The notes under the pieces are model-generated. The model was given only the letters and a program-made list of their open reading frames with translations, made no database searches and had not been told where the DNA came from. Shown here one piece after another: positions 22 to 35,445 of a stretch of 36,133 bases of DNA. The DNA is from a virus. The stretch lies in the UHGV virus genome UHGV-1536779; one strand, 5' to 3'. Both the position numbers and the translations under genes were made by a program. Position 1 is the first letter of the stretch; each line of letters opens with the position of its first letter.

Positions 22-1389
22 TCAATATCCTAAAAAATTTATTTTCAAATTTCCATCTGGATAAACCACAATATTTTTAATCACTTGCCGCCATAAAGAA
101 CTTTTTTCCGAAATAGTTAGCTGTTTATATCCATCTCTAAATTCAGCAGTAGAGTAGTTATGCAGTGAGTTCAAATCAATTTTAGCAATTTTATTATCTC
201 TTTCAGGTATTAAAAGTGCTTCTAATTCTTCTCTGTCTTTTTTATATTCCTCTAATGTTATAACCTCATTTAGATAAGCTTTTTTTAGTCTATCTATTTT
301 CTTTTTTATTTTATCGTTAGTATTCTTAGTTTTTTTTACTTCGGGTTCTTGTTGCATTTTTACAGACAGCTCTTCTGCTTGTTTTTCAATATTTTCCAGA
401 AGGAAATTTTCTAGTGTAGTTTCATATATACCTTTTTTATTACTACATTTTTTTACGTTATTACGGTTTTTGGTGCATCTATATAAATGTCTTTCATTCG
501 GGTTTGTCGTACCGTCTTTGCGTACATATCGGCTAATAACCGCCGTGGCGGAATAATTACAACCACATTCACTACAAACTAACAATCCAGTAAACATATA
601 GTCGCGTTTTTTATTCATACGAATATTTTTTGAAAGTTGTAATTGTACCCTTTCGAATACGTCACGATCAATAATAGGTTCACAAAAATTTTTATTATCT
701 CGTAATTCACCAATGTATTTTCTATTAGTAAGCATTTGCCGAACGCTTTGATAATCTCTTGTCATGCTGAAATGATTTTCTAAATGTCTAACGGTGGCAC
801 GCATGCTACCAGTTTCTAAATAGTACTGGAAAATTTCTTTTACTATTTCAGCTTTTTCATTTGGAACAAGATGTTTGTCTTTGATTTCGTAGCCAAGGGG
901 AACTTTTCCACTAACGACTTCACCTTTTCGTATTTTGTTATCAAAAACAGCACGTATTCTTTCAGAAGTCATCTGTGCTTCAAGCTCAGCAAAACCCATT
1001 GATTGATTTACAAATGAACGGCCCATTGCTGTTTCTGTGTTAAAGAAAGGTTGTGTAACGGCTAACCAAGTAACATTGTTTTTGTCTAGTATTTCTTGAA
1101 TATTTAAATAATGACGTAAATTTCTAAACCATCTATCTAATTTTGTAAATAAGATCGTATCGATTCTTCCTTTTTTAACATCATCCAATAATTTTTGAAA
1201 TTCATCACGATATAGTTTCTGACCTGAAATGCCATCATCTATATAAGTTTTGAATACTCTCATATTTCCTTGTTGTCTTACGTATTCATTTAAAGTGTAT
1301 TGTTGTTCATCCAAACTATCACCATGTTTAGCTTGTTGATCTGTAGACACACGTATGTATAACGCTACTTGTTTTATTTCATTTGCCAT
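22..1389 (-). CDS. int: Large serine recombinase (phage integrase)
   Basis: 455 aa. N-terminal resolvase-type catalytic domain with the catalytic-Ser motif ALYIRVSTDQQ. Recombinase domain, then a C-terminal Cys cluster (CSECGC...CTKNRNNVKKC) and a coiled-coil, as in phiC31/A118-type large serine integrases. Confidence 0.9.
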   Translation of the reverse strand: MANEIKQVALYIRVSTDQQAKHGDSLDEQQYTLNEYVRQQGNMRVFKTYIDDGISGQKLYRDEFQKLLDDVKKGRIDTILFTKLDRWFRNLRHYLNIQEILDKNNVTWLAVTQPFFNTETAMGRSFVNQSMGFAELEAQMTSERIRAVFDNKIRKGEVVSGKVPLGYEIKDKHLVPNEKAEIVKEIFQYYLETGSMRATVRHLENHFSMTRDYQSVRQMLTNRKYIGELRDNKNFCEPIIDRDVFERVQLQLSKNIRMNKKRDYMFTGLLVCSECGCNYSATAVISRYVRKDGTTNPNERHLYRCTKNRNNVKKCSNKKGIYETTLENFLLENIEKQAEELSVKMQQEPEVKKTKNTNDKIKKKIDRLKKAYLNEVITLEEYKKDREELEALLIPERDNKIAKIDLNSLHNYSTAEFRDGYKQLTISEKSSLWRQVIKNIVVYPDGNLKINFLGY

Positions 1390-6447: not shown

Positions 6448-7236
6448 TTGGCCATTGGAGGTTGGATAAAACTTTATAGGACCATTCAAGATCACTGGAT
6501 TTGGGAAAATCCTCAATACCTTAAATGGTGGCTTGATTTAATATTCATGGCCAATCACCAAGACAGAAAGATTCTTTTTGATGGAGAGTTAAAAACGGTG
6601 AAAGTCGGAGAAAGAATTACATCCGAAAAAAAACTTTCTGAAAGGTGGGAAGTAAGCCGAAACACCGTCAGAAAATTTTTAGATTTGCTTGTTAAAGATG
6701 ACATGATTGAATTAAGCAGAAGTAGACAAAACGGGACATGGTACAAAGTCAGTAACTACGCAGAATATCAAAGCTTTTCTGAAATGAAAAAACAACGAAC
6801 TGAACAACGAAGTGAACAACAAGCTGCACATCAAACTGAACAACGAACTGAACATAAACAAGAACCTAAAGAACCTAAGAACCTAAGAAGTAATAATAAT
6901 AACAATAAAGGGTCGTCCATTCGTTCAATTTGGGAAAATAACGGATTTGGATTGATGTCGTCTAAAACTATGACCGATTTTGATTATTGGATTTCTGATT
7001 TTGAAAAAATCGGAGCTAGTCAAAAAGATGCTGAACAATTAATTGTTAAAGCTATTGAAATTGCTATTGATGCAAACGCAAGAAACTATAACTATATCAA
7101 TGCCATATTGAAAGATTGGGAACAAAGAGGGTTCAAATCTGTTGATGATCGAGAAGCGGCAAGGAAGCAAAAGAAAACGATCAAGCAACAGAAATCAAAT
7201 ACAGGTCATTCGGATTACGATGATCTTGGATTTTAG
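6448..7236 (+). CDS. Replisome organizer: phage replication-initiation N-terminal domain plus DnaD-like C-terminal domain
   Basis: TTG start 7 nt after AAAGGAGG. C-terminal segment NYNYINAILKDWEQRGF matches the DnaD-type YxxxIxxxW motif. Contains a low-complexity Q/E/R/T repeat and an N5 run encoded by DNA repeats. Confidence 0.65.
   Translation: MAIGGWIKLYRTIQDHWIWENPQYLKWWLDLIFMANHQDRKILFDGELKTVKVGERITSEKKLSERWEVSRNTVRKFLDLLVKDDMIELSRSRQNGTWYKVSNYAEYQSFSEMKKQRTEQRSEQQAAHQTEQRTEHKQEPKEPKNLRSNNNNNKGSSIRSIWENNGFGLMSSKTMTDFDYWISDFEKIGASQKDAEQLIVKAIEIAIDANARNYNYINAILKDWEQRGFKSVDDREAARKQKKTIKQQKSNTGHSDYDDLGF
6791..6890 (+). repeat. Iteron-like direct repeats inside the replisome-organizer gene (CTGAACAACGAA x2 plus a variant; GAACCTAA x3)
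   Basis: Read directly from the sequence. Candidate phage replication origin embedded in the initiator gene, as in lambda O. Confidence 0.4.
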
Positions 7237-9469: not shown

Positions 9470-9676
9470 GTGTTCATTTTGCTTGAGATTTATTATACGC
9501 CAACATCCGCAATAATTGCGGATGCATTGGCTAAAACATATGAGGTCGTTTCTTTAGACAAAGCTAGAAATATTGCCAAGAAATTTAAGGCTAGTTTAAA
9601 GCAGAAAACTGACCTTTATGTGATTGAGGGAATTTTGATTGATGCTGGTTATAAAAAAGAGCCAGTGAATTTGTGA
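9470..9676 (+). CDS. Hypothetical protein
   Basis: 68 aa. GTG start. Confidence 0.45.
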   Translation: MFILLEIYYTPTSAIIADALAKTYEVVSLDKARNIAKKFKASLKQKTDLYVIEGILIDAGYKKEPVNL

Positions 9677-10473
9677 GGAAGGAGTGGAGGTTTGGTCGAC
9701 CACAAAGAATTCTTTACTCCTTTGAAATTATGATAGTATGGGCACTATTTGATAGTGGGAACGGGTGTTATAAACGTTCTGCACAAAAGTTTGAAGATAT
9801 AGAAATATACAGCATAGGTTTGGATATTGAAAACAAGAATGACCATTTTATTCATCTGAATTTAGCGGACTATTCTTATATGTTTAATGATAATAAATTA
9901 TTCAAAGTTTTAGACAAATTACCTAAGCCAGATTTAATCATTGCAAGCCCACCGTGCGAAAGCTGGTCAGTAGCTAGTGCAATGAAAAATGGTAATGCTT
10001 GTTGGAAAAGAGAAGATGTAACAGATAATTTATTTGCACCACAGATATTACCAAGCCCGTTTACTATAAGAACCACAAAAGATTACGAAGATACTAATTA
10101 TGTTTATGAACGACAATTTTTAAAAAGAGTGAATGGTGAGTTAACGGTTTTTAATACTATAAAAATTATAAAAAAGTACCAACCCAGATATTTCATTATT
10201 GAGAACCCGGCTAATGGTAAAATTTGGGAATATATTGAAGATGTCTTGAATTTTAAACTACCATTTAAAAATTTAACCAGGTATAACAATTATGATTATC
10301 CATTACAGAAGCCCACGAAATTTGCCAGTAATATTCATTTGGGATTGAAAAATAAAGTTATTAAACAAGAAATTGCCTGGGGCAATTTTTCCAAAAGCTA
10401 TAATGAACGATCAAATATTCCAGAAAAATTAGTCGATGACATATTTAAAAAAGTTTTAGAGAAAAATAAATAG
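9673..10473 (+). CDS. DNA cytosine-5 methyltransferase-like protein (compact, orphan)
   Basis: C5-MTase motif I-like (LFDSGNG), motif IV (DLIIASPPCESWSVA, containing the PC dipeptide) and motif VI-like (FIIENPANG). Only about 250-266 aa, so the target-recognition region is very short. No restriction partner is present. Confidence 0.55.
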   Translation: MRKEWRFGRPQRILYSFEIMIVWALFDSGNGCYKRSAQKFEDIEIYSIGLDIENKNDHFIHLNLADYSYMFNDNKLFKVLDKLPKPDLIIASPPCESWSVASAMKNGNACWKREDVTDNLFAPQILPSPFTIRTTKDYEDTNYVYERQFLKRVNGELTVFNTIKIIKKYQPRYFIIENPANGKIWEYIEDVLNFKLPFKNLTRYNNYDYPLQKPTKFASNIHLGLKNKVIKQEIAWGNFSKSYNERSNIPEKLVDDIFKKVLEKNK

Positions 10474-10489: not shown

Positions 10490-10512
10490 TGCGGCCGCAT
10501 AAAAAGCTTTTT
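10490..10512. repeat. Adjacent perfect palindromes TGCGGCCGCA (contains the GC-only octamer GCGGCCGC) and AAAAAGCTTTTT
   Basis: Read directly from the sequence. An 8-bp all-GC palindrome is very unexpected in this AT-rich DNA. Lies between the C5-MTase-like gene and the next ORF. Confidence 0.5.
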
Positions 10513-10526
10513 GCTCCTTTGGAATT

Positions 10527-11180
10527 ATGAAATTAACAACAGAAAAAATAAATGAACTGCTAGGTGTTGATGATGCCTACAAAGCGCCAGAAGCGCTCAT
10601 GAATATATTACTAAGTCGCGATAAACGAGAAATCGTGTTTAACAAATTTTTAGAAATAGAAAAAGATTTAACTTTCGATTGGTTTCACGAATATTTTCAA
10701 GACGAACATGCTGATCGGAAAGTTAAGAAGCAAGATTTTACGCCAAATTCAATTGGGGAAGTGATTGCAAAAATCGTAGGACCTGGAAGTGGATTGACAC
10801 ATGAAGTAGCTTCTGGGACAGGTGGAATGATCATACAAAAATGGCGAGCAGACAGACTATCTATTGGTTTTTTTGAATATAAACCATCAATGACTTTTTA
10901 CGATTTAGAGGAGTTATCTGATAGAACCATTCCGTTCCTGCTGTTCAATCTTGCTATTCGTGGAATGAACGCCACCGTAGTCCACGGTGATTCCCTAGAC
11001 AGAAAAATAAAACAGATTTACTTTTTACAAAATTCAAAAGATGATTCGTTGGCTTTTAGCGATGTAAATGTTATGCCGCACAGCGATGTGGTCACAAGAG
11101 AGTTTCAAGTCAGAGAATGGCTGGAAGAAGCTATTAATCACATTGAAAGTCCCAGCGTGTTAGGAGGAGAAAACGAATGA
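10527..11180 (+). CDS. N6-adenine-MTase-like (HsdM-type N-terminal / SAM-binding) domain protein lacking the NPPF/Y catalytic motif
   Basis: FTPNSIGEVIAKIV resembles the HsdM FxTP motif. EVASGTGGM resembles the AdoMet motif I (DPACGSGG). TVVHGDSL resembles the HsdM GDTL block. No N-P-P-F/Y/W follows before the stop at 217 aa. Confidence 0.45.
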   Translation: MKLTTEKINELLGVDDAYKAPEALMNILLSRDKREIVFNKFLEIEKDLTFDWFHEYFQDEHADRKVKKQDFTPNSIGEVIAKIVGPGSGLTHEVASGTGGMIIQKWRADRLSIGFFEYKPSMTFYDLEELSDRTIPFLLFNLAIRGMNATVVHGDSLDRKIKQIYFLQNSKDDSLAFSDVNVMPHSDVVTREFQVREWLEEAINHIESPSVLGGENE

Positions 11181-12121
11181 CAAAACGTCCCAGACTTTTT
11201 GCTGGCTATTTTTTAGAATGGATTGAAACTTACAAAGTCGGCGCAATTAGAGATATCTCAGTTAGTAAATATTATATAGCCCACAAACACCTTACTGAAA
11301 TTTGCCCTGATTTAACGATAGATAAATTAGATAGAAAGGCTTATCAAAGTATTCTTAATGAATACGCTCTGACACATGAGCGGCAGACAACAATGGATTT
11401 CCATCACCAAATTGGCAGCTGTGTAAGAGATATGTATCACGAAGGACTAATTAAACGTGATCCAACCTACAAAGCGATTATCAAAGGAATACCGCCGAGA
11501 CCAAAAAAGAAAAAATTCCTGCAAAAAGGCGAACTACAAAAGCTGTTGAGATCACTAGAACTTGGCGAAGGGATAAATATGGATTGGTTCATTTTACTGG
11601 TTGCAAAAACAGGAATGCGCTTTGCGGAAGCCATTGCGTTAACACCAGCTGATTTTGATTGGACCAGAAATACCGTCAGCATTAATAAAACATTGAACTA
11701 CAAAAATTCTACAATGTTTTTTCAGGATACGAAAAACAAAAGTTCTGTTAGAACAATAAGCATTGATTGGCAGATAGTTGGTCAGTTTAAACCGCTCATT
11801 GAAAATTTACCTCAAGATGAATTGATTTTTGTAAATCGAGATGAAAAGACAGGCAAATATAAACGAATTTTCAATTCAACATACAATTCCCACCTGATCA
11901 GAAAATGCAAAGAATCAGGAATCACTGTCATCACAATGCACGGACTTAGACATACACATGCAAGTATTTTACTCGCTGACGGGGTGTCAACTCATAGCAT
12001 AGCTAAACGTCTAGGTCATTCAAGCGTGACTACTACTCAAGAAACATACATGCATATCATTGATGAATTGCAGAGTAAAGATGATGAAAAGATTCTTGGT
12101 GCATTGATGCAACTTTCCTAG
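11177..12121 (+). CDS. Tyrosine recombinase (phage-integrase family), complete
   Basis: N-terminal SAM-like domain. Catalytic region with Arg box (KTGMRFAEA), HGLRHTHAS (HxxR) and catalytic Tyr (TQETYMHI). ATGA overlap with the upstream ORF. Strong AGGAGGAG RBS. Confidence 0.85.
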   Translation: MTKRPRLFAGYFLEWIETYKVGAIRDISVSKYYIAHKHLTEICPDLTIDKLDRKAYQSILNEYALTHERQTTMDFHHQIGSCVRDMYHEGLIKRDPTYKAIIKGIPPRPKKKKFLQKGELQKLLRSLELGEGINMDWFILLVAKTGMRFAEAIALTPADFDWTRNTVSINKTLNYKNSTMFFQDTKNKSSVRTISIDWQIVGQFKPLIENLPQDELIFVNRDEKTGKYKRIFNSTYNSHLIRKCKESGITVITMHGLRHTHASILLADGVSTHSIAKRLGHSSVTTTQETYMHIIDELQSKDDEKILGALMQLS

Positions 12122-12133
12122 TGTGGTGATTTC

Positions 12134-12703
12134 ATGTATAGAAAATGGACAGAAGACGAACTAGTGTATTTAGAGTATTTCGTTTTTGAAAACGACACTC
12201 AGCTAATTGAAGCTTCTAAGTACTTGGACAGAAGCATCAATGCGATTAGAAAAAAATTGTGCAAAATGCGAAAAGAAGATGATTTTAGATGCTACATGCA
12301 CCGTCTATGGTCTGAAAAAGAGGATGAGTTCTTAAAAAAGCACTATCTATCTATGAAAAATAAGCATATAGCTGATAGGTTAAATCGTACAGTTGGAGCT
12401 GTTGAGTTTAGGGCTAAAAAATTAGGGCTGACAAAGCACAAGAAGATTAAAGAGCTAGATACAGAAATCCGACGTTTGATTGACGAAGATTACTACCTCA
12501 GCCAAATATGCACAAAATTAAACATTAAGATGTCGTCTCTAATCGCACATTGCCAACGTGAAAAAATCCCCTATAAAAAAATGCCTAGGACCGAATATAA
12601 AAATTATGGGAACCACATCTGGAATGTGCAAGATAAAGTGAGATTTCAAGAATATTTAAGTAAACAAGAATCGAAAGCGAGTGAAGAAGATGTCTCTAAC
12701 TGA
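12134..12703 (+). CDS. Myb/SANT-like triple-repeat putative DNA-binding protein
   Basis: Three roughly 40-aa repeats of the W-(S/T)-E-x-E-D-x-x-L ... (I/L)A-x-x-L-x-R-(S/T) type (WTEDELVYL..., WSEKEDEFL..., LDTEIRRLI...). GTGGTGA RBS. Confidence 0.45.
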   Translation: MYRKWTEDELVYLEYFVFENDTQLIEASKYLDRSINAIRKKLCKMRKEDDFRCYMHRLWSEKEDEFLKKHYLSMKNKHIADRLNRTVGAVEFRAKKLGLTKHKKIKELDTEIRRLIDEDYYLSQICTKLNIKMSSLIAHCQREKIPYKKMPRTEYKNYGNHIWNVQDKVRFQEYLSKQESKASEEDVSN

Positions 12704-12781
12704 AGAACTAAAAAAATTCATGAAGGAGTTTAAGCGAAGTAGCAAATGTCAAAGTATCAGAGATGTTGATCAGGAGGAATA

Positions 12782-14128: not shown

Positions 14129-14348
14129 CCATTTATTACACTTTTTATACCTCTTTTATACACTTTATCTACACTTCATATACCTTCTAAACGAGTTATT
14201 ATGATAGTGTCAAAAAAATAAGAAATGCGACACACTTACACAAATACATTAACGGAACGATTGCCTACTTATTTTTTTGATTTGAGATTACAAGGAAGTA
14301 AAAAAAATCTACTTTCTTCGTTTAGTCACTTGTGATCTCATTTAGATT

Positions 14349-14429: not shown

Positions 14430-14502
14430 TGGAGCATAGCTTAATCGGTAGAGCAGCGGTCTCCAAAACCGTTGGTATAGGTTCGAATCCTATTGTTCCA
14501 GT
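14430..14502 (+). tRNA. tRNA-Trp (anticodon CCA), phage-encoded
   Basis: Hand-folded cloverleaf. Acceptor TGGAGCA / TGTTCCA with one G-U pair. D-arm GCTT-AATCGGTA-GAGC. Anticodon stem GCGGT / ACCGT. Anticodon loop CTCCAAA, giving anticodon CCA. T-arm ATAGG-TTCGAAT-CCTAT. Closely parallels the B. subtilis tRNA-Trp layout as recalled. Confidence 0.8.
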
Positions 14503-19365: not shown

Positions 19366-20696
19366 TGAAAATGCGTAAAATTTTAGAAAAACGAGCTGCT
19401 AAATTAAAAGCAAAATTAGCTTCAATGGAAGAACGTGCAAAAAGTGAAACTTTAACACGTGATGAATTAAGTGATATTGAATCACAAGTGGAAGAAGTCA
19501 CAGCAGAATTAGACGAAATCAACGATGCGATCGCAGAATTGCCTGAAGAAGATGTAACAGAATTAGGTGATGCTGTAGACGACTTAGGCGCAGCTGCTGA
19601 TGAAATTGTTGAAGAAGTAGACGGAAAAGGCACTGAAGAAGATGATTCAGAACCAGCTGACGATAAAGAACGCAGCCGTGTTTTAGATATTATCGGGAAA
19701 GGTATTTCAAGTCGGGGAGAAGAAAAAGTGAAAAAATTAACTCAACGTAGCGCGTTCTTACGCTATTTGGCTGGTCGAATTACACCTAATCAAGCTCGTT
19801 CATTTGGTGTTGGTTTTAACAACGGTAAAGTATTGGTACCACAAGAATTAAGTAAAGAGATTATTTCATACCTACAAGAAGAAAATCCTTTGCGTAAATT
19901 TGCAAGTGTTCATCAAACTAAAGGAACTCAAGGTTTCCCAGTACAAGTAAAACAAGCCGAAGCAAATACAGTTACTAGTGAACGTGATGAAAATAATTTA
20001 ATTCCATTTACTGACATTGAATTTGATGATGTTTACTTAAACCCAATCGAATTTGATGCAATTATTAAAGTCACGAAGAAATTAACGCATATGTCAGACT
20101 TTGACATTGAAGCTATCGTGTTAGATGAACTAAAGAAAGCGTACTTGCGTAAAGAAACATTCTGGTATTTTTCAAGTCCTGATAACAAAGGAGCATTAGC
20201 TAAAAAAGCTGTAGCCTTTACTGGTAAAGGAGACAATGATTATTTAAAAGTTGTTCAATTAAAAAATGCTTTACCGACTGCTATGCGTTCAGGCGCTCGC
20301 TTTATGATCAATCGTGCAGCACAAACGTTGTTGGAATCCATGCTAGATAGCACTGGAAATCCGATTCTTAAAGATGCTGGGAATGATGATTTTGATTACA
20401 AGTTATTTACTTATCCAGTAGAAGTTACAGACTACGCAGATAAATACAATGAAACTACGAAGAAATTCGATCCAACAGTACCAGTGATCTATTTCGGTAA
20501 TTTCTCTTATTTCCACATTCAAGATGTTATTGGTTCATTGGAAATTGAAAAATTAACTGAACTATTTGCGCGTGAAAATAAAGTCGGGTTTAAAATTTAT
20601 CATTTAAACGATGGTCAATTAATTTATGGGCCGTTTGAAACACCTGTTTATAGCTTAGACTTAAGTACAACCCCAGCACCTAATCCAGGTGAATAA
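19365..20696 (+). CDS. Major capsid protein (HK97 fold) with N-terminal coiled-coil scaffolding (delta) domain
   Basis: 443 aa. N-terminal about 100 aa is a charged coiled-coil. Immediately follows the prohead protease. Confidence 0.8.
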   Translation: MKMRKILEKRAAKLKAKLASMEERAKSETLTRDELSDIESQVEEVTAELDEINDAIAELPEEDVTELGDAVDDLGAAADEIVEEVDGKGTEEDDSEPADDKERSRVLDIIGKGISSRGEEKVKKLTQRSAFLRYLAGRITPNQARSFGVGFNNGKVLVPQELSKEIISYLQEENPLRKFASVHQTKGTQGFPVQVKQAEANTVTSERDENNLIPFTDIEFDDVYLNPIEFDAIIKVTKKLTHMSDFDIEAIVLDELKKAYLRKETFWYFSSPDNKGALAKKAVAFTGKGDNDYLKVVQLKNALPTAMRSGARFMINRAAQTLLESMLDSTGNPILKDAGNDDFDYKLFTYPVEVTDYADKYNETTKKFDPTVPVIYFGNFSYFHIQDVIGSLEIEKLTELFARENKVGFKIYHLNDGQLIYGPFETPVYSLDLSTTPAPNPGE

Positions 20697-31826: not shown

Positions 31827-32055
31827 TTGGAAATCAAGAATAAAAAACAAACAATTCTGGTTGTCTCTTATTCCTGCAGTTTTGTTACTTATTCAAGTAG
31901 TTGCAGTTCCTTTTGGGTATAAATTTCAAATTGATGTGATTAATCAGCAACTGCTAGATGTTGTCAATGCAGTGTTTGTTGTATTAACTATTTTAGGAAT
32001 TGTGACAGACCATACAACGCCTGGTTTATCAGATAAAAAGGAGACAAATAAATGA
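31819..32055 (+). CDS. Holin, phiLC3 family
   Basis: Start at [28 protein letters not shown]... (GGAGG 8 nt upstream). Two TM segments and the [11 protein letters not shown] tail match the phiLC3-type holin pattern. ATGA overlap with the lysin. Confidence 0.65.
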
Positions 32056-33290
32056 AAAAGAAAATTTTAGCAGGAGCGTTAATCGCTCTATTTTTTATGC
32101 CTTTAAATGTATTTGCTGCAAAGGGTGATCAAGGCGTTGATTTGTCTATTTGGAATGGATATCAAGCAACATTTGGTTATTCACATGATAAATTCTCAAT
32201 TTCACAAATTGGTGGGCAAAATAACTATGGAATTTATGATCAAGTTACTTATTCTAGTCAAGTAGCTAGTACGATTGCTCAAGGTAAACGAGCACATACG
32301 TATGTATGGTGGCAAAATGTCCTTACCTACGAAAATGCAAAGCAAGTATTAGATTATTTTTTACCTAAAGTTCAAACACCAAAGGGATCAATTGTCGCCT
32401 TAGATGCGGAAGACGGCGTTCAATCGACGGATGTAACGCTATGGGCGTTAGACTATATCAAAGAGGCTGGATATACACCGATGCTTTACGGATACAAAGG
32501 GTATCTTACTTCAGCTTATGATCTATCACGAATTGCAAAGAAGTATCAATTATGGATGGCAGAATATCCAGATTATGAAGTGACACCTTATCCAAATTAC
32601 AATTATTTTCCTTCATTTGAAAATATCGGTATTTTTCAGTTCACGTCAACCTACGTTGCAGGAGGGCTAGATGGTAACGTTGATTTAACAGGTATTACTG
32701 ATAATGGTTATACAAAAAATAACCAACCAGAAACAAACACACCAGCTATTGAAGAAGGTAAAGAAGTTGAAAAAACACCTACTTCTGCAGTAAAAGTCGG
32801 TGACACGGTCAAAGTGAAATTTAATGTTGATGCTTGGGCAACTGGTGAAGCTATTCCAGATTGGGTAAAAGGAAACAGCTACAAAGTGCAAGAAGTAACT
32901 GGAAGCAGAGTATTGCTAGAAGGTATCTTGTCATGGATTAGCAAAGGCGATATTGAATTGTTGCCAGATGCTACAACTGTTCCCAATAAGCAACCAGAAG
33001 CAACACACGTGGTTCAATATGGCGAAACATTATCGAGCATTGCGTACCAATACGGAACAGATTATCAAACGTTGGCGGCATTAAATGGATTGGCTAATCC
33101 AAATCTTATTTATCCTGGTCAAGTTTTGAAAGTCAATGGATCAGCAGTAAGCAACGTTTATACAGTTCTATACGGTGATAATTTATCAAGTATTGCAGCC
33201 AAACTCGGCACTACTTATCAAGCCTTAGCTGCATTAAACGGATTAGCAAATCCTAACCTGATTTATCCTGGTCAAACATTGAATTATTAA
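32052..33290 (+). CDS. Endolysin: Sec signal peptide, GH25 muramidase and two LysM repeats
   Basis: N-terminal [25 protein letters not shown] signal peptide. GH25-like GVDLSIWNG. Two C-terminal LysM repeats ([39 protein letters not shown] and a second copy). Confidence 0.85.
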
Positions 33291-35371: not shown

Positions 35372-35445
35372 GGACCATTAGCTCAGTTGGTTAGAGCAAA
35401 CGGCTCATAACCGTTCGGTCACAGGTTCGAGTCCTGTATGGTCCA
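35372..35445 (+). tRNA. tRNA with CAU anticodon: elongator tRNA-Met, or more likely a tRNA-Ile2 (lysidine) type
   Basis: Hand-folded 74-nt cloverleaf: GGACCAT-TA-GCTC-AGTTGGTTA-GAGC-A-AACGG-CTCATAA-CCGTT-CGGTC-ACAGG-TTCGAGT-CCTGT-ATGGTCC-A. No three consecutive G-C pairs in the anticodon stem, so not an initiator. C4/C5 in the acceptor stem and the CTCATAA loop resemble the Bacillus tRNA-Ile2 as recalled. Confidence 0.8.

Follow-up and report, generated by a model that had tools for sequence, protein, structure and literature searches.

We analysed a window of 36,133 nucleotides, the virus genome UHGV-1536779, which represents a temperate siphophage or prophage of Enterococcus faecalis, and concentrated on three adjacent plus-strand genes in its early region. 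These encode a short methyltransferase (MTase)-like protein of HsdM type (217 aa, 10527..11180), a tyrosine recombinase (314 aa, 11177..12121) and a putative DNA-binding partner with three helix-turn-helix (HTH) repeats of possible Myb type (189 aa, 12134..12703). A check of the open reading frames (ORFs) agreed with the original prediction, which had been made from the sequence alone, on the positions of the three genes, on the ATGA in which the start codon of the recombinase gene overlaps the stop codon of the MTase-like gene, and on the 12 nt that separate the recombinase stop from the start of the HTH gene. The prediction had also credited all three genes with strong ribosome-binding sites; this was true of the recombinase gene (AGGAGG), but the site of the HTH gene is moderate (GGTGA) and no clear Shine-Dalgarno (SD) sequence was seen upstream of the MTase-like ORF. 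The trio is co-directional with the early lytic operon and lacks a promoter or terminator of its own, and no plus-strand terminator was found within the operon between 8.0 and 14.1 kb. This uninterrupted early operon, the linkage of the three genes in many phages and the purifying selection on each of them, both described below, support the earlier view of the trio as a functional operon rather than debris. The tyrosine recombinase is indeed the second site-specific recombinase of this prophage, since a serine recombinase of 455 aa is encoded at the edge of the window (22-1389, minus strand), and it is the latter that fills the role of lysogeny integrase.

The 314-aa protein was assigned to the tyrosine recombinase superfamily by its match to the Pfam model Phage_integrase (PF00589; E=9.5e-25, above the cut-off) and by the presence of R148, H255/R258, H281 and Y291, which include the Arg box, HxxR box and catalytic Tyr already recognised in this full-length enzyme. 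Together with K171, these residues are invariant in 11 phage homologues, which argues for real recombination chemistry. The protein consists of a core-binding and a catalytic domain; an arm-binding N-terminal domain is absent, and the gene lies in the early lytic operon, not at the prophage edge. Lysogeny integrases, which are about 380 aa long, share at most 39% identity with it. Phage relatives at 49-64% identity include gp43 of Listeria phage B025, gp64 of B054, a protein of Lacticaseibacillus phage R9.1 and those of many prophages, and the nearest cellular relatives are the EfiA-type invertases, at 50-59% identity. Huang et al. 2020 (PMC7672463) described such EfiA-type hsdS loci as 'epigenetic invertons'. 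When genomic relatives with 50-56% identity were sampled as one genome per species, about 50 of the 66 had hsdS/hsdM neighbours, and relatives of this inverton type span Firmicutes, Veillonella, Bifidobacterium, Moraxella and Mycoplasma. The recombinase of E. faecalis locus L009 (58.5% identity), which corresponds to efiA in length (930 nt) and locus layout, and that of Listeria locus L010 (53% identity) both sit between inverted hsdS genes beside hsdM. In a neighbour-joining tree the phage copies appeared as basal branches next to one inverton clade, and a lysogeny integrase lay far from both. Together, these comparisons place the recombinase in the EfiA invertase family and not with the lysogeny integrases. 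A literature search returned nothing relevant on phage-borne EfiA-like recombinases, on B025 gp43, or on phage HsdM working with host HsdS.

Several database entries required care in this analysis. L009 and L010 are labelled 'phage' but are clearly chromosomal. The 'Enterococcus/Listeria phage' records OR846613.1 and OR846726.1 (UNVERIFIED_ORG) are chromosomal contigs with Type I restriction-modification (R-M) invertons; along with MZ361825.1 they count as artefacts of annotation or assembly and could lead studies of gene context astray. The gene order of Listeria phage P9 (MZ361825.1), considered as an inversion, was discounted because all its coding sequences abut without gaps in an implausible order, and L114 and L131 were rejected as phage-borne invertons, being complete hsdR-hsdM-hsdS loci near contig ends.

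The 217-aa ORF had been described as the S-adenosylmethionine (SAM)-binding N-terminal half of an HsdM-type enzyme that ends ahead of any NPPF/Y motif, and the profile comparison proposed at that time upheld this description: the Pfam N6_Mtase model matches over profile positions 9-120 of 311 only. The motifs QDFTP (aa 69-73), SGTGG (aa 96-100) and GDSL (aa 154-157) are present, and [ND]PP[YFW] is absent from the ORF and from all six frames of the 36-kb window, in which a detached C-terminal segment, as postulated, was likewise not found (tblastn E>=1). PADLOC classes the protein as a Type I MTase (E=1e-10), and phrog_1071 (profile length 223) matches it over the full length (E=6e-100). Its domain plan begins with a helical, phage-specific N-domain of about 68 aa, which is followed by the first, SAM-binding half of a Rossmann fold and by a family-specific tail. 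An AlphaFold (AF2) model with a mean predicted local distance difference score (pLDDT) of 87 and a predicted template modelling score (pTM) of 0.86 likewise predicts a helical N-domain followed by beta1-alpha-beta2-alpha-beta3 and a capping hairpin plus helix, with no further Rossmann strands; the closest folds to this model are Type I M subunits, in partial alignment only. Alignment with full-length relatives stops ahead of NPPYS, and the C-terminal HsdS-binding half of those relatives is not present in the 217-aa protein. Compared with HsdM of Type I R-M systems, then, the short protein shares motif X (QDFTP), motif I (GTGG) and the GDSL region, but it is without HsdM_N, NPPY, the latter half of the fold and the C-terminal part. 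The short form is widespread. A tblastn search found the gene in 212 phage records (111 from Lactococcus, 59 from Streptococcus, and the rest from Lactobacillus, Listeria, Staphylococcus and others), among them r1t, ul36 and virulent phages of the 936 group, nearly always as a stand-alone gene of about 210-240 aa. At the protein level the family comprised 690 clusters at E<=1e-10, and the best 120 of the 690 were all 198-245 aa long. The family has a C-terminal tail of its own, YFxQN..DD.L.FS..NVMP[HR]S..EF..W.E..H[IV]ES, which replaces the NPPY-containing half of full-length relatives, and 41 members agree throughout in the SAM-motif residues QDFTP, GxG, EE and HGD (motifs X, I, II and III). 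The short MTase-like protein is thus an independent conserved family and not a broken methylase or debris. It keeps the SAM-binding residues and is predicted to be incapable of methyl transfer, since the NPPY motif and the second Rossmann half are missing.

Full-length methylases do occur at related loci. In a phage whose flanking backbone is 88-95% identical to the window (L078), the trio locus carries a full-length methylase of 411 aa, an overlapping recombinase gene and then the HTH protein gene, and over its residues 1-156 this methylase shares 62% identity with the window protein. The L078 methylase in turn is 46% identical over 355 aa to HsdM of the E. faecalis hsdS inverton, a similarity that takes in the C-terminal half and is highest there, running through an NLNIPRYVDT motif to the protein end, with the phage-specific domain of about 68 aa in place of the long HsdM_N domain of HsdM. 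PADLOC likewise classes the full-length phage MTase as Type I. At the same locus in phage 1_EfsPF36 (L008) we found a full-length 438-aa methylase with NPPYS, whose first ~73 residues are the same as those of the 217-aa protein, followed by a half-size HsdS of 146 aa and with no recombinase; this pair (L008 5529-7282), an M without HsdM_N plus a half HsdS with a single target recognition domain (TRD), makes up a self-contained Type I-like methylase. A third arrangement was seen in L080, where the recombinase gene precedes a methylase (L080 5963-7265) split just ahead of NPPYS into ORFs of 175 and 260 aa. The second methylase ORF has its own AAGGAG SD sequence and a GTG start that overlaps the stop of the first (GTGAGTGA), and this split form, seen in 7 contigs, resembles a genuine two-subunit enzyme more than a frameshift error. 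The signals at the split suggest that the N-terminal half of HsdM is a natural autonomous unit.

The third gene product, which matches phrog_323, had been described as a Myb/SANT-like triple-repeat protein. The AF2 model of the 189-aa protein contains three three-helix bundles and a long C-terminal helix, in keeping with the triple repeat. The Myb assignment is plausible, though no match behind it reached significance: Pfam gave no Myb match for the window protein (the best model, Sigma70_r4_2, was below its cut-off), a homologue had no more than 'faint' Myb matches in Pfam, and fold matches of the model to Myb, Reb1 and Cdc5 were all at E>0.1. The resemblance is suggestive only. A word-based homologue search returned just 10 relatives. 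The protein is almost always encoded beside a recombinase of the phage type, and homologues adjoin the recombinase gene in B025, B054, R9.1, L067, L078, L081, L083, L084 and L087.

We then considered whether the three genes travel together, as comparative genomics was expected to reveal, and found them linked in many phages and in several gene orders. The trio recurs in phages of Listeria, Lacticaseibacillus and other Bacilli. Among 33 clusters of recombinases that remained after de-replication of the IMG/VR set, a gene for the HsdM N-terminal half adjoins the recombinase gene, with no hsdS, in 17; writing M for the MTase-like gene, R for the recombinase and H for the HTH gene, the orders in these were M-R-H, R-H-M, H-M-R, R-M and M-R, and two of the 17 had a full-length M. 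The remaining clusters had an HTH partner only (2/33), hsdS-type neighbours (7/33) or no recognised neighbour (7/33), and the order in L067 is H-R-M. That linkage outlasts this shuffling of gene order argues for functional coupling. The ratio of nonsynonymous to synonymous polymorphism (pN/pS) was at most 0.10 for all three genes (0.03-0.07 within E. faecalis for the MTase-like gene, 0.02-0.09 for the recombinase gene and 0.06-0.10 for the HTH gene), and all three are under strong purifying selection.

The trio is an accessory cassette that is present or absent between near-identical phages and moves between backbones. A blastn comparison delimited a shared block of 2,166 bp (10527..12692, plus strand) with 97.6% identity to two prophages of one E. 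faecalis genome (L091 and L092), which differ from each other in their replication and packaging modules and have flanks unrelated to those of the window; the block runs from the ATG of the MTase-like ORF to about 10 nt before the stop of the HTH gene, and some 20 near-identical copies of the cassette are present in IMG/VR contigs. Phage R9.1 is likewise phage BH1 plus a 1.55-kb insertion of the recombinase and HTH genes bounded by SD sequences, the two phages being otherwise near-identical. No att-like repeats were found at the edges in either comparison (R9.1 with BH1, and the window with L091), and the junctions fall at SD sequences or start codons. The suggestion of a small integrative element nested in the phage thus holds to the extent that a discrete cassette moves between backbones, but not as regards its ends. 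L091 and L092, at 188 kb and 2.50 Mb of E. faecalis LR962676.1, also share with each other a block of 4,986 bp at 99.84% identity, which contains a C5 MTase gene, the trio, three small ORFs and a DUF1642 gene; an identity this high over such a length indicates recent exchange between the co-resident prophages.

A gene for a compact C5-cytosine MTase-like protein of 266 aa (9673..10473, plus strand) precedes the trio in the window and lies outside the shared cassette. Pfam DNA_methylase matches it over a short stretch only, and phrog_2882 matches it end to end; two unusually small methylase-like genes (9673-10473 and 10527-11180) thus adjoin each other. It has a near-identical copy in phage 1_EfsPF36 (L008 4732-5475), and C5 MTase genes adjoin the trio in R9.1, L084 and L091/L092 and often flank it elsewhere. 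In the 53-nt intergenic region 5' of the MTase-like ORF, just beyond the left edge of the shared cassette, lies a NotI palindrome, GCGGCCGC (10493-10500), which is unusual for a genome of about 35% GC.

In chromosomal hsdS loci we found 153 instances, at <=2 mismatches, of a 17-nt motif, TGGGAACWGYGTAAGTT, which is near-invariant even at synonymous positions and oriented about the recombinase gene, with plus and minus orientations at 106:3 upstream and minus and plus at 44:3 downstream. The motif coincides with the inversion boundary IR2 (5'-TGGGAACAGTGTAAG-3') of Efa4125I, which was mapped by experiment (PMC7672463). It occurs twice per hsdS gene, once at the start of each TRD, and is kept across Firmicutes, Actinobacteria, Negativicutes, Proteobacteria and Mycoplasma (chromosomal hsdS loci L009-L074). 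This distribution fits TGGGAACWGYGTAAGTT being a universal crossover site for invertases of the EfiA clade. By contrast, neither the window nor 187 kb of phage loci gave a single match to the motif at <=3 mismatches, and hsdS-like sequence was absent from the window and from every trio-bearing phage locus. A search of the window for repeats that might serve as recombination sites gave no significant inverted or direct repeats, only short, imperfect pairs at chance level; the longest inverted repeat is 37 nt with 76% complementarity, and none bounds tail or MTase segments. One pair just 3' of the cassette (12745-12765 and 20088-20108; 21 nt, 81%) was rejected as a recombination site, being not conserved and such that recombination would invert the head genes. 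When Cre/Xer-like palindromic core sites were sought around the cassette in 11 phages, no motif recurred, nor did any dif- or lox-like site come to light, and across 26 diverse cassettes the only conserved DNA motifs were coding motifs and A-rich sequence. Given that an invertible segment, hsdS, the crossover motif and a detached catalytic half are all missing, the phage carries no self-contained phase-variable module. The earlier proposal of a recombinase-driven, phase-variable modification module was therefore right about the kind of recombinase, which comes from an hsdS-inverting family, and wrong about the presence of the module. The other idea put forward, a recombinase co-opted for genome-dimer resolution or host-range switching, found neither support nor contradiction in these data.

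Set beside known systems, the phage recombinase is most like the EfiA (clade-4) invertases (PMC7672463), with which it shares 50-59% identity over the full length, a two-domain plan of about 310 aa, the catalytic residues and an overlapping host range (Enterococcus, Listeria and lactobacilli). It differs from them in having no flanking hsdS and no nearby TGGGAACAGTGTAAG repeats, in being paired with an HTH-repeat protein that invertons lack, in its usual linkage to a truncated HsdM-like gene, and in branching separately, at a basal position, in the tree. A tyrosine recombinase that inverts hsdS segments and so switches methylation specificity, as the cellular relatives do, is also found in the SpnD39III (cod/ivr) locus of Streptococcus pneumoniae; this enzyme, PsrA/CreX, belongs to a different invertase clade, clade 1 (PMC7672463). 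With Cre and XerC/D/S/A the phage enzyme has in common the two-domain plan without an arm-binding domain and weak matches to Xer and integron-integrase models, but NCBIfam models for the Xer families gave 41-72 bits where 220-335 are required, and all Xer and integron scores fell far short of the family cut-offs (in one case 44 bits for a cut-off of 330). Unlike in Rci/Gin/Cin-like shufflons, no inverted repeats bound invertible coding segments in the window, and, unlike in a Type I M2S1 methylase complex, the short protein has neither the HsdS-binding C-terminal region nor a phage-encoded HsdS partner; HsdR is not encoded in the phage either.

Taken together, it is well supported that the trio is a conserved accessory cassette of temperate Bacilli phages, located in the early lytic operon, and sequence comparison gives equally good support for a derivation of its MTase-like gene and recombinase from the same gene pool as the epigenetic invertons of Type I R-M systems. 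What is new here is that an inverton-type recombinase and an HsdM derivative have been repackaged as a mobile early-gene cassette of phages. These relationships suggest, without proving, that phages tamper with the Type I R-M defence of the host. Our tentative reading, to which we give somewhat less than an even chance, is of an early-expressed accessory module acting on the host Type I R-M system, either as counter-defence or to manipulate phase-variable restriction. According to this reading, the recombinase, with the HTH protein as its probable targeting or architectural partner, would recombine a site that is absent from the phage. The likeliest substrate would be the EfiA-type hsdS inverton of the host, with the inverted repeats TGGGAACAGTGTAAG that the closest relatives recombine, so that infection or induction would reshuffle or perturb host Type I specificity. 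It is this host machinery that the HsdM-derived partner would engage as well. A full-length MTase of the L078 type, which keeps the HsdS-binding C-terminal half, could methylate phage DNA through host HsdS, and the short form, in which the SAM-binding residues are kept and catalysis is not possible, would serve as a subunit that binds or interferes without catalysis. Overall, this would amount to counter-defence against phase-variable Type I restriction, or manipulation of it. The 50-59% identity to hsdS invertases, the crossover motif that equals IR2, the kinship of the full-length phage MTase with inverton HsdM, the linkage of the genes, the invariant catalytic and SAM-motif residues, the low pN/pS values, the accessory nature of the cassette, the failure to find a phage-borne substrate and the co-residence of an inverton and a trio in E. 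devriesei all point in this direction. Early accessory genes aimed at Type I restriction are familiar in phages, as with Ocr, ArdA, the T3 SAM lyase and phage orphan methyltransferases, and the cassette, beside a C5 MTase gene, occupies the same genomic niche as these; its proteins are not known to resemble them in sequence or fold, and any anti-restriction role is presumed.

Several points weigh against this reading. Recognition of the inverton site by the phage recombinase is presumed from homology, and when the two clades are compared domain by domain for DNA specificity, the phage copies depart systematically from the invertons at 38 of the 140 positions that invertons conserve, including changes of basic residues (R98Y, K193T), so that the specificity of the phage enzyme may differ. 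Chromosomal invertases work without an HTH partner, and the obligate partner of the phage recombinase hints at a different reaction. B054 and L087 have the recombinase and HTH genes without the MTase-like gene; conversely, about 200 phage records carry the short MTase-like gene with no recombinase at all, which implies that the short protein has a recombinase-independent function, and this protein lacks the region expected to bind HsdS. Co-residence of an inverton (L014) and a phage trio (L076) was seen in one genome only, that of E. devriesei DSM 22802. Finally, reshuffling of hsdS after infection would not protect the incoming phage genome, and any benefit must therefore fall to progeny or lysogens. 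A more specific version accommodates the last point: in a dedicated counter-defence of temperate phages of Enterococcus, Listeria and lactobacilli, an EfiA-type invertase with a Myb-like guide would flip host hsdS in trans during lytic growth, and the HsdM-derived protein would methylate with host HsdS (full-length form) or poison or sequester the complex (short form), such that progeny or lysogens escape a restriction that is phase-variable at the level of the population. We regard this version as possible but doubtful.

Other explanations were weighed against the same evidence. The recombinase and HTH protein might serve mainly to move a selfish or moron-like cassette between phages, with the likeness to invertases due to shared ancestry, and such a cassette would account for a discrete accessory unit that sits in unrelated backbones, varies in gene order and is present as a clean 1.55-kb indel between R9.1 and BH1. 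We nevertheless consider it unlikely, given edges without att-like direct or inverted repeats, junctions that coincide with SD sequences or start codons, a pattern usual in phage mosaicism, insertion positions that vary among phages, the lack of a conserved cassette-borne site, and strong purifying selection that extends to the MTase-like gene. Of similarly low probability is a role in phage genome maintenance, in which a Cre/Xer-like resolvase with the HTH protein as accessory factor would act at a phage site on multimers or on replication or recombination intermediates. A simple recombinase without an arm-binding domain, encoded among replication and recombination genes (RusA, RecU, RecT and DnaD/DnaC neighbours), would suit that role; yet the genes are dispensable between near-identical phages, packaging from concatemers needs no resolution, the Xer model scores are far under the cut-offs, and neither a conserved site nor an inverted-repeat pair was found in the window or in the cassettes. 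There is even less reason to expect that the cassette acts in the lysogen, through DNA binding or regulation, as a prophage defence, superinfection exclusion system or regulator in place of counter-defence. Its R-M-related content, its moron-like mobility and the frequency of defence islands in prophages are compatible with this, but it runs co-directionally inside the early lytic operon and has neither a promoter nor a terminator of its own, neither the recombinase nor the HTH protein has a PADLOC match, and the invariant catalytic residues speak for recombination chemistry.

Two further accounts treat the locus as damaged. It is very unlikely that the cassette is the remnant, now without coherent function, of a once complete phage-borne phase-variable system of M, S and invertase: although hsdS is missing, the MTase-like gene and the recombinase each have homologues in invertons, and the related 1_EfsPF36 has an M with a half-size S, the pN/pS values, the conservation of the trio across genera and gene orders, and a short family too widespread and uniform to consist of decay products are all at odds with decay. 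The notion that an incoming integrase gene split a full-length MTase gene has next to no probability left. A related phage with a full-length MTase and no integrase had been named as the finding that would point to such an artefact, and 1_EfsPF36, with its 438-aa, NPPY-containing MTase at the same locus and the same first ~73 residues, is such a phage. It is no proof of disruption, however, since the short family has its own conserved tail, together with a compact and confidently modelled fold, and since L078 pairs a full-length MTase with the recombinase; moreover, no C-terminal half lies downstream, and hundreds of phages have the short form without any recombinase. Insertion is thereby effectively refuted.

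Other features of the window lie outside this region. A tRNA-Trp gene (CCA, 14430-14501) is located between the gene for an ArpU-like activator and the packaging genes, and a tRNA-Met gene (CAT, 35372-35445) lies close to the right-hand end. In the replication region, ORF 6448-7236 contains five 12-nt units in tandem (ACAACGAACTGA-like; 6792-6866), which may be iterons or an origin, or may encode a repeated peptide. Directly 3' of the ArpU-like activator gene, overlapping direct repeats at 11-nt spacing (14142-14178; TTTTATAC[CA]C...) may be late-promoter or activator-binding elements. Two 119-nt direct repeats (33012-33283; 74% identity, spacing 153) within ORF 32052-33290 probably represent repeated cell-wall-binding modules of the lysin.

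Independent of mechanism, these data define a widespread, selectively maintained trio of phage genes that pipelines label 'integrase' and 'DNA methyltransferase', and they indicate, judging by sequence, that the short protein called a 'methyltransferase' in hundreds of dairy and clinical phages cannot be one. The 15-17-bp EfiA repeat now provides a substrate on which the recombinase can be tested directly. In pathogens such as E. faecalis, L. monocytogenes and streptococci, phase-variable Type I R-M is seen both as a bet-hedging form of defence and as an epigenetic switch. Should phages encode a switching enzyme of their own together with an HsdM-derived partner, the specificity switch of the host could be driven or subverted from outside; phages would then have a counter-defence of a new type, and the methylome and phenotype of lysogens could switch for a reason that is likewise new.

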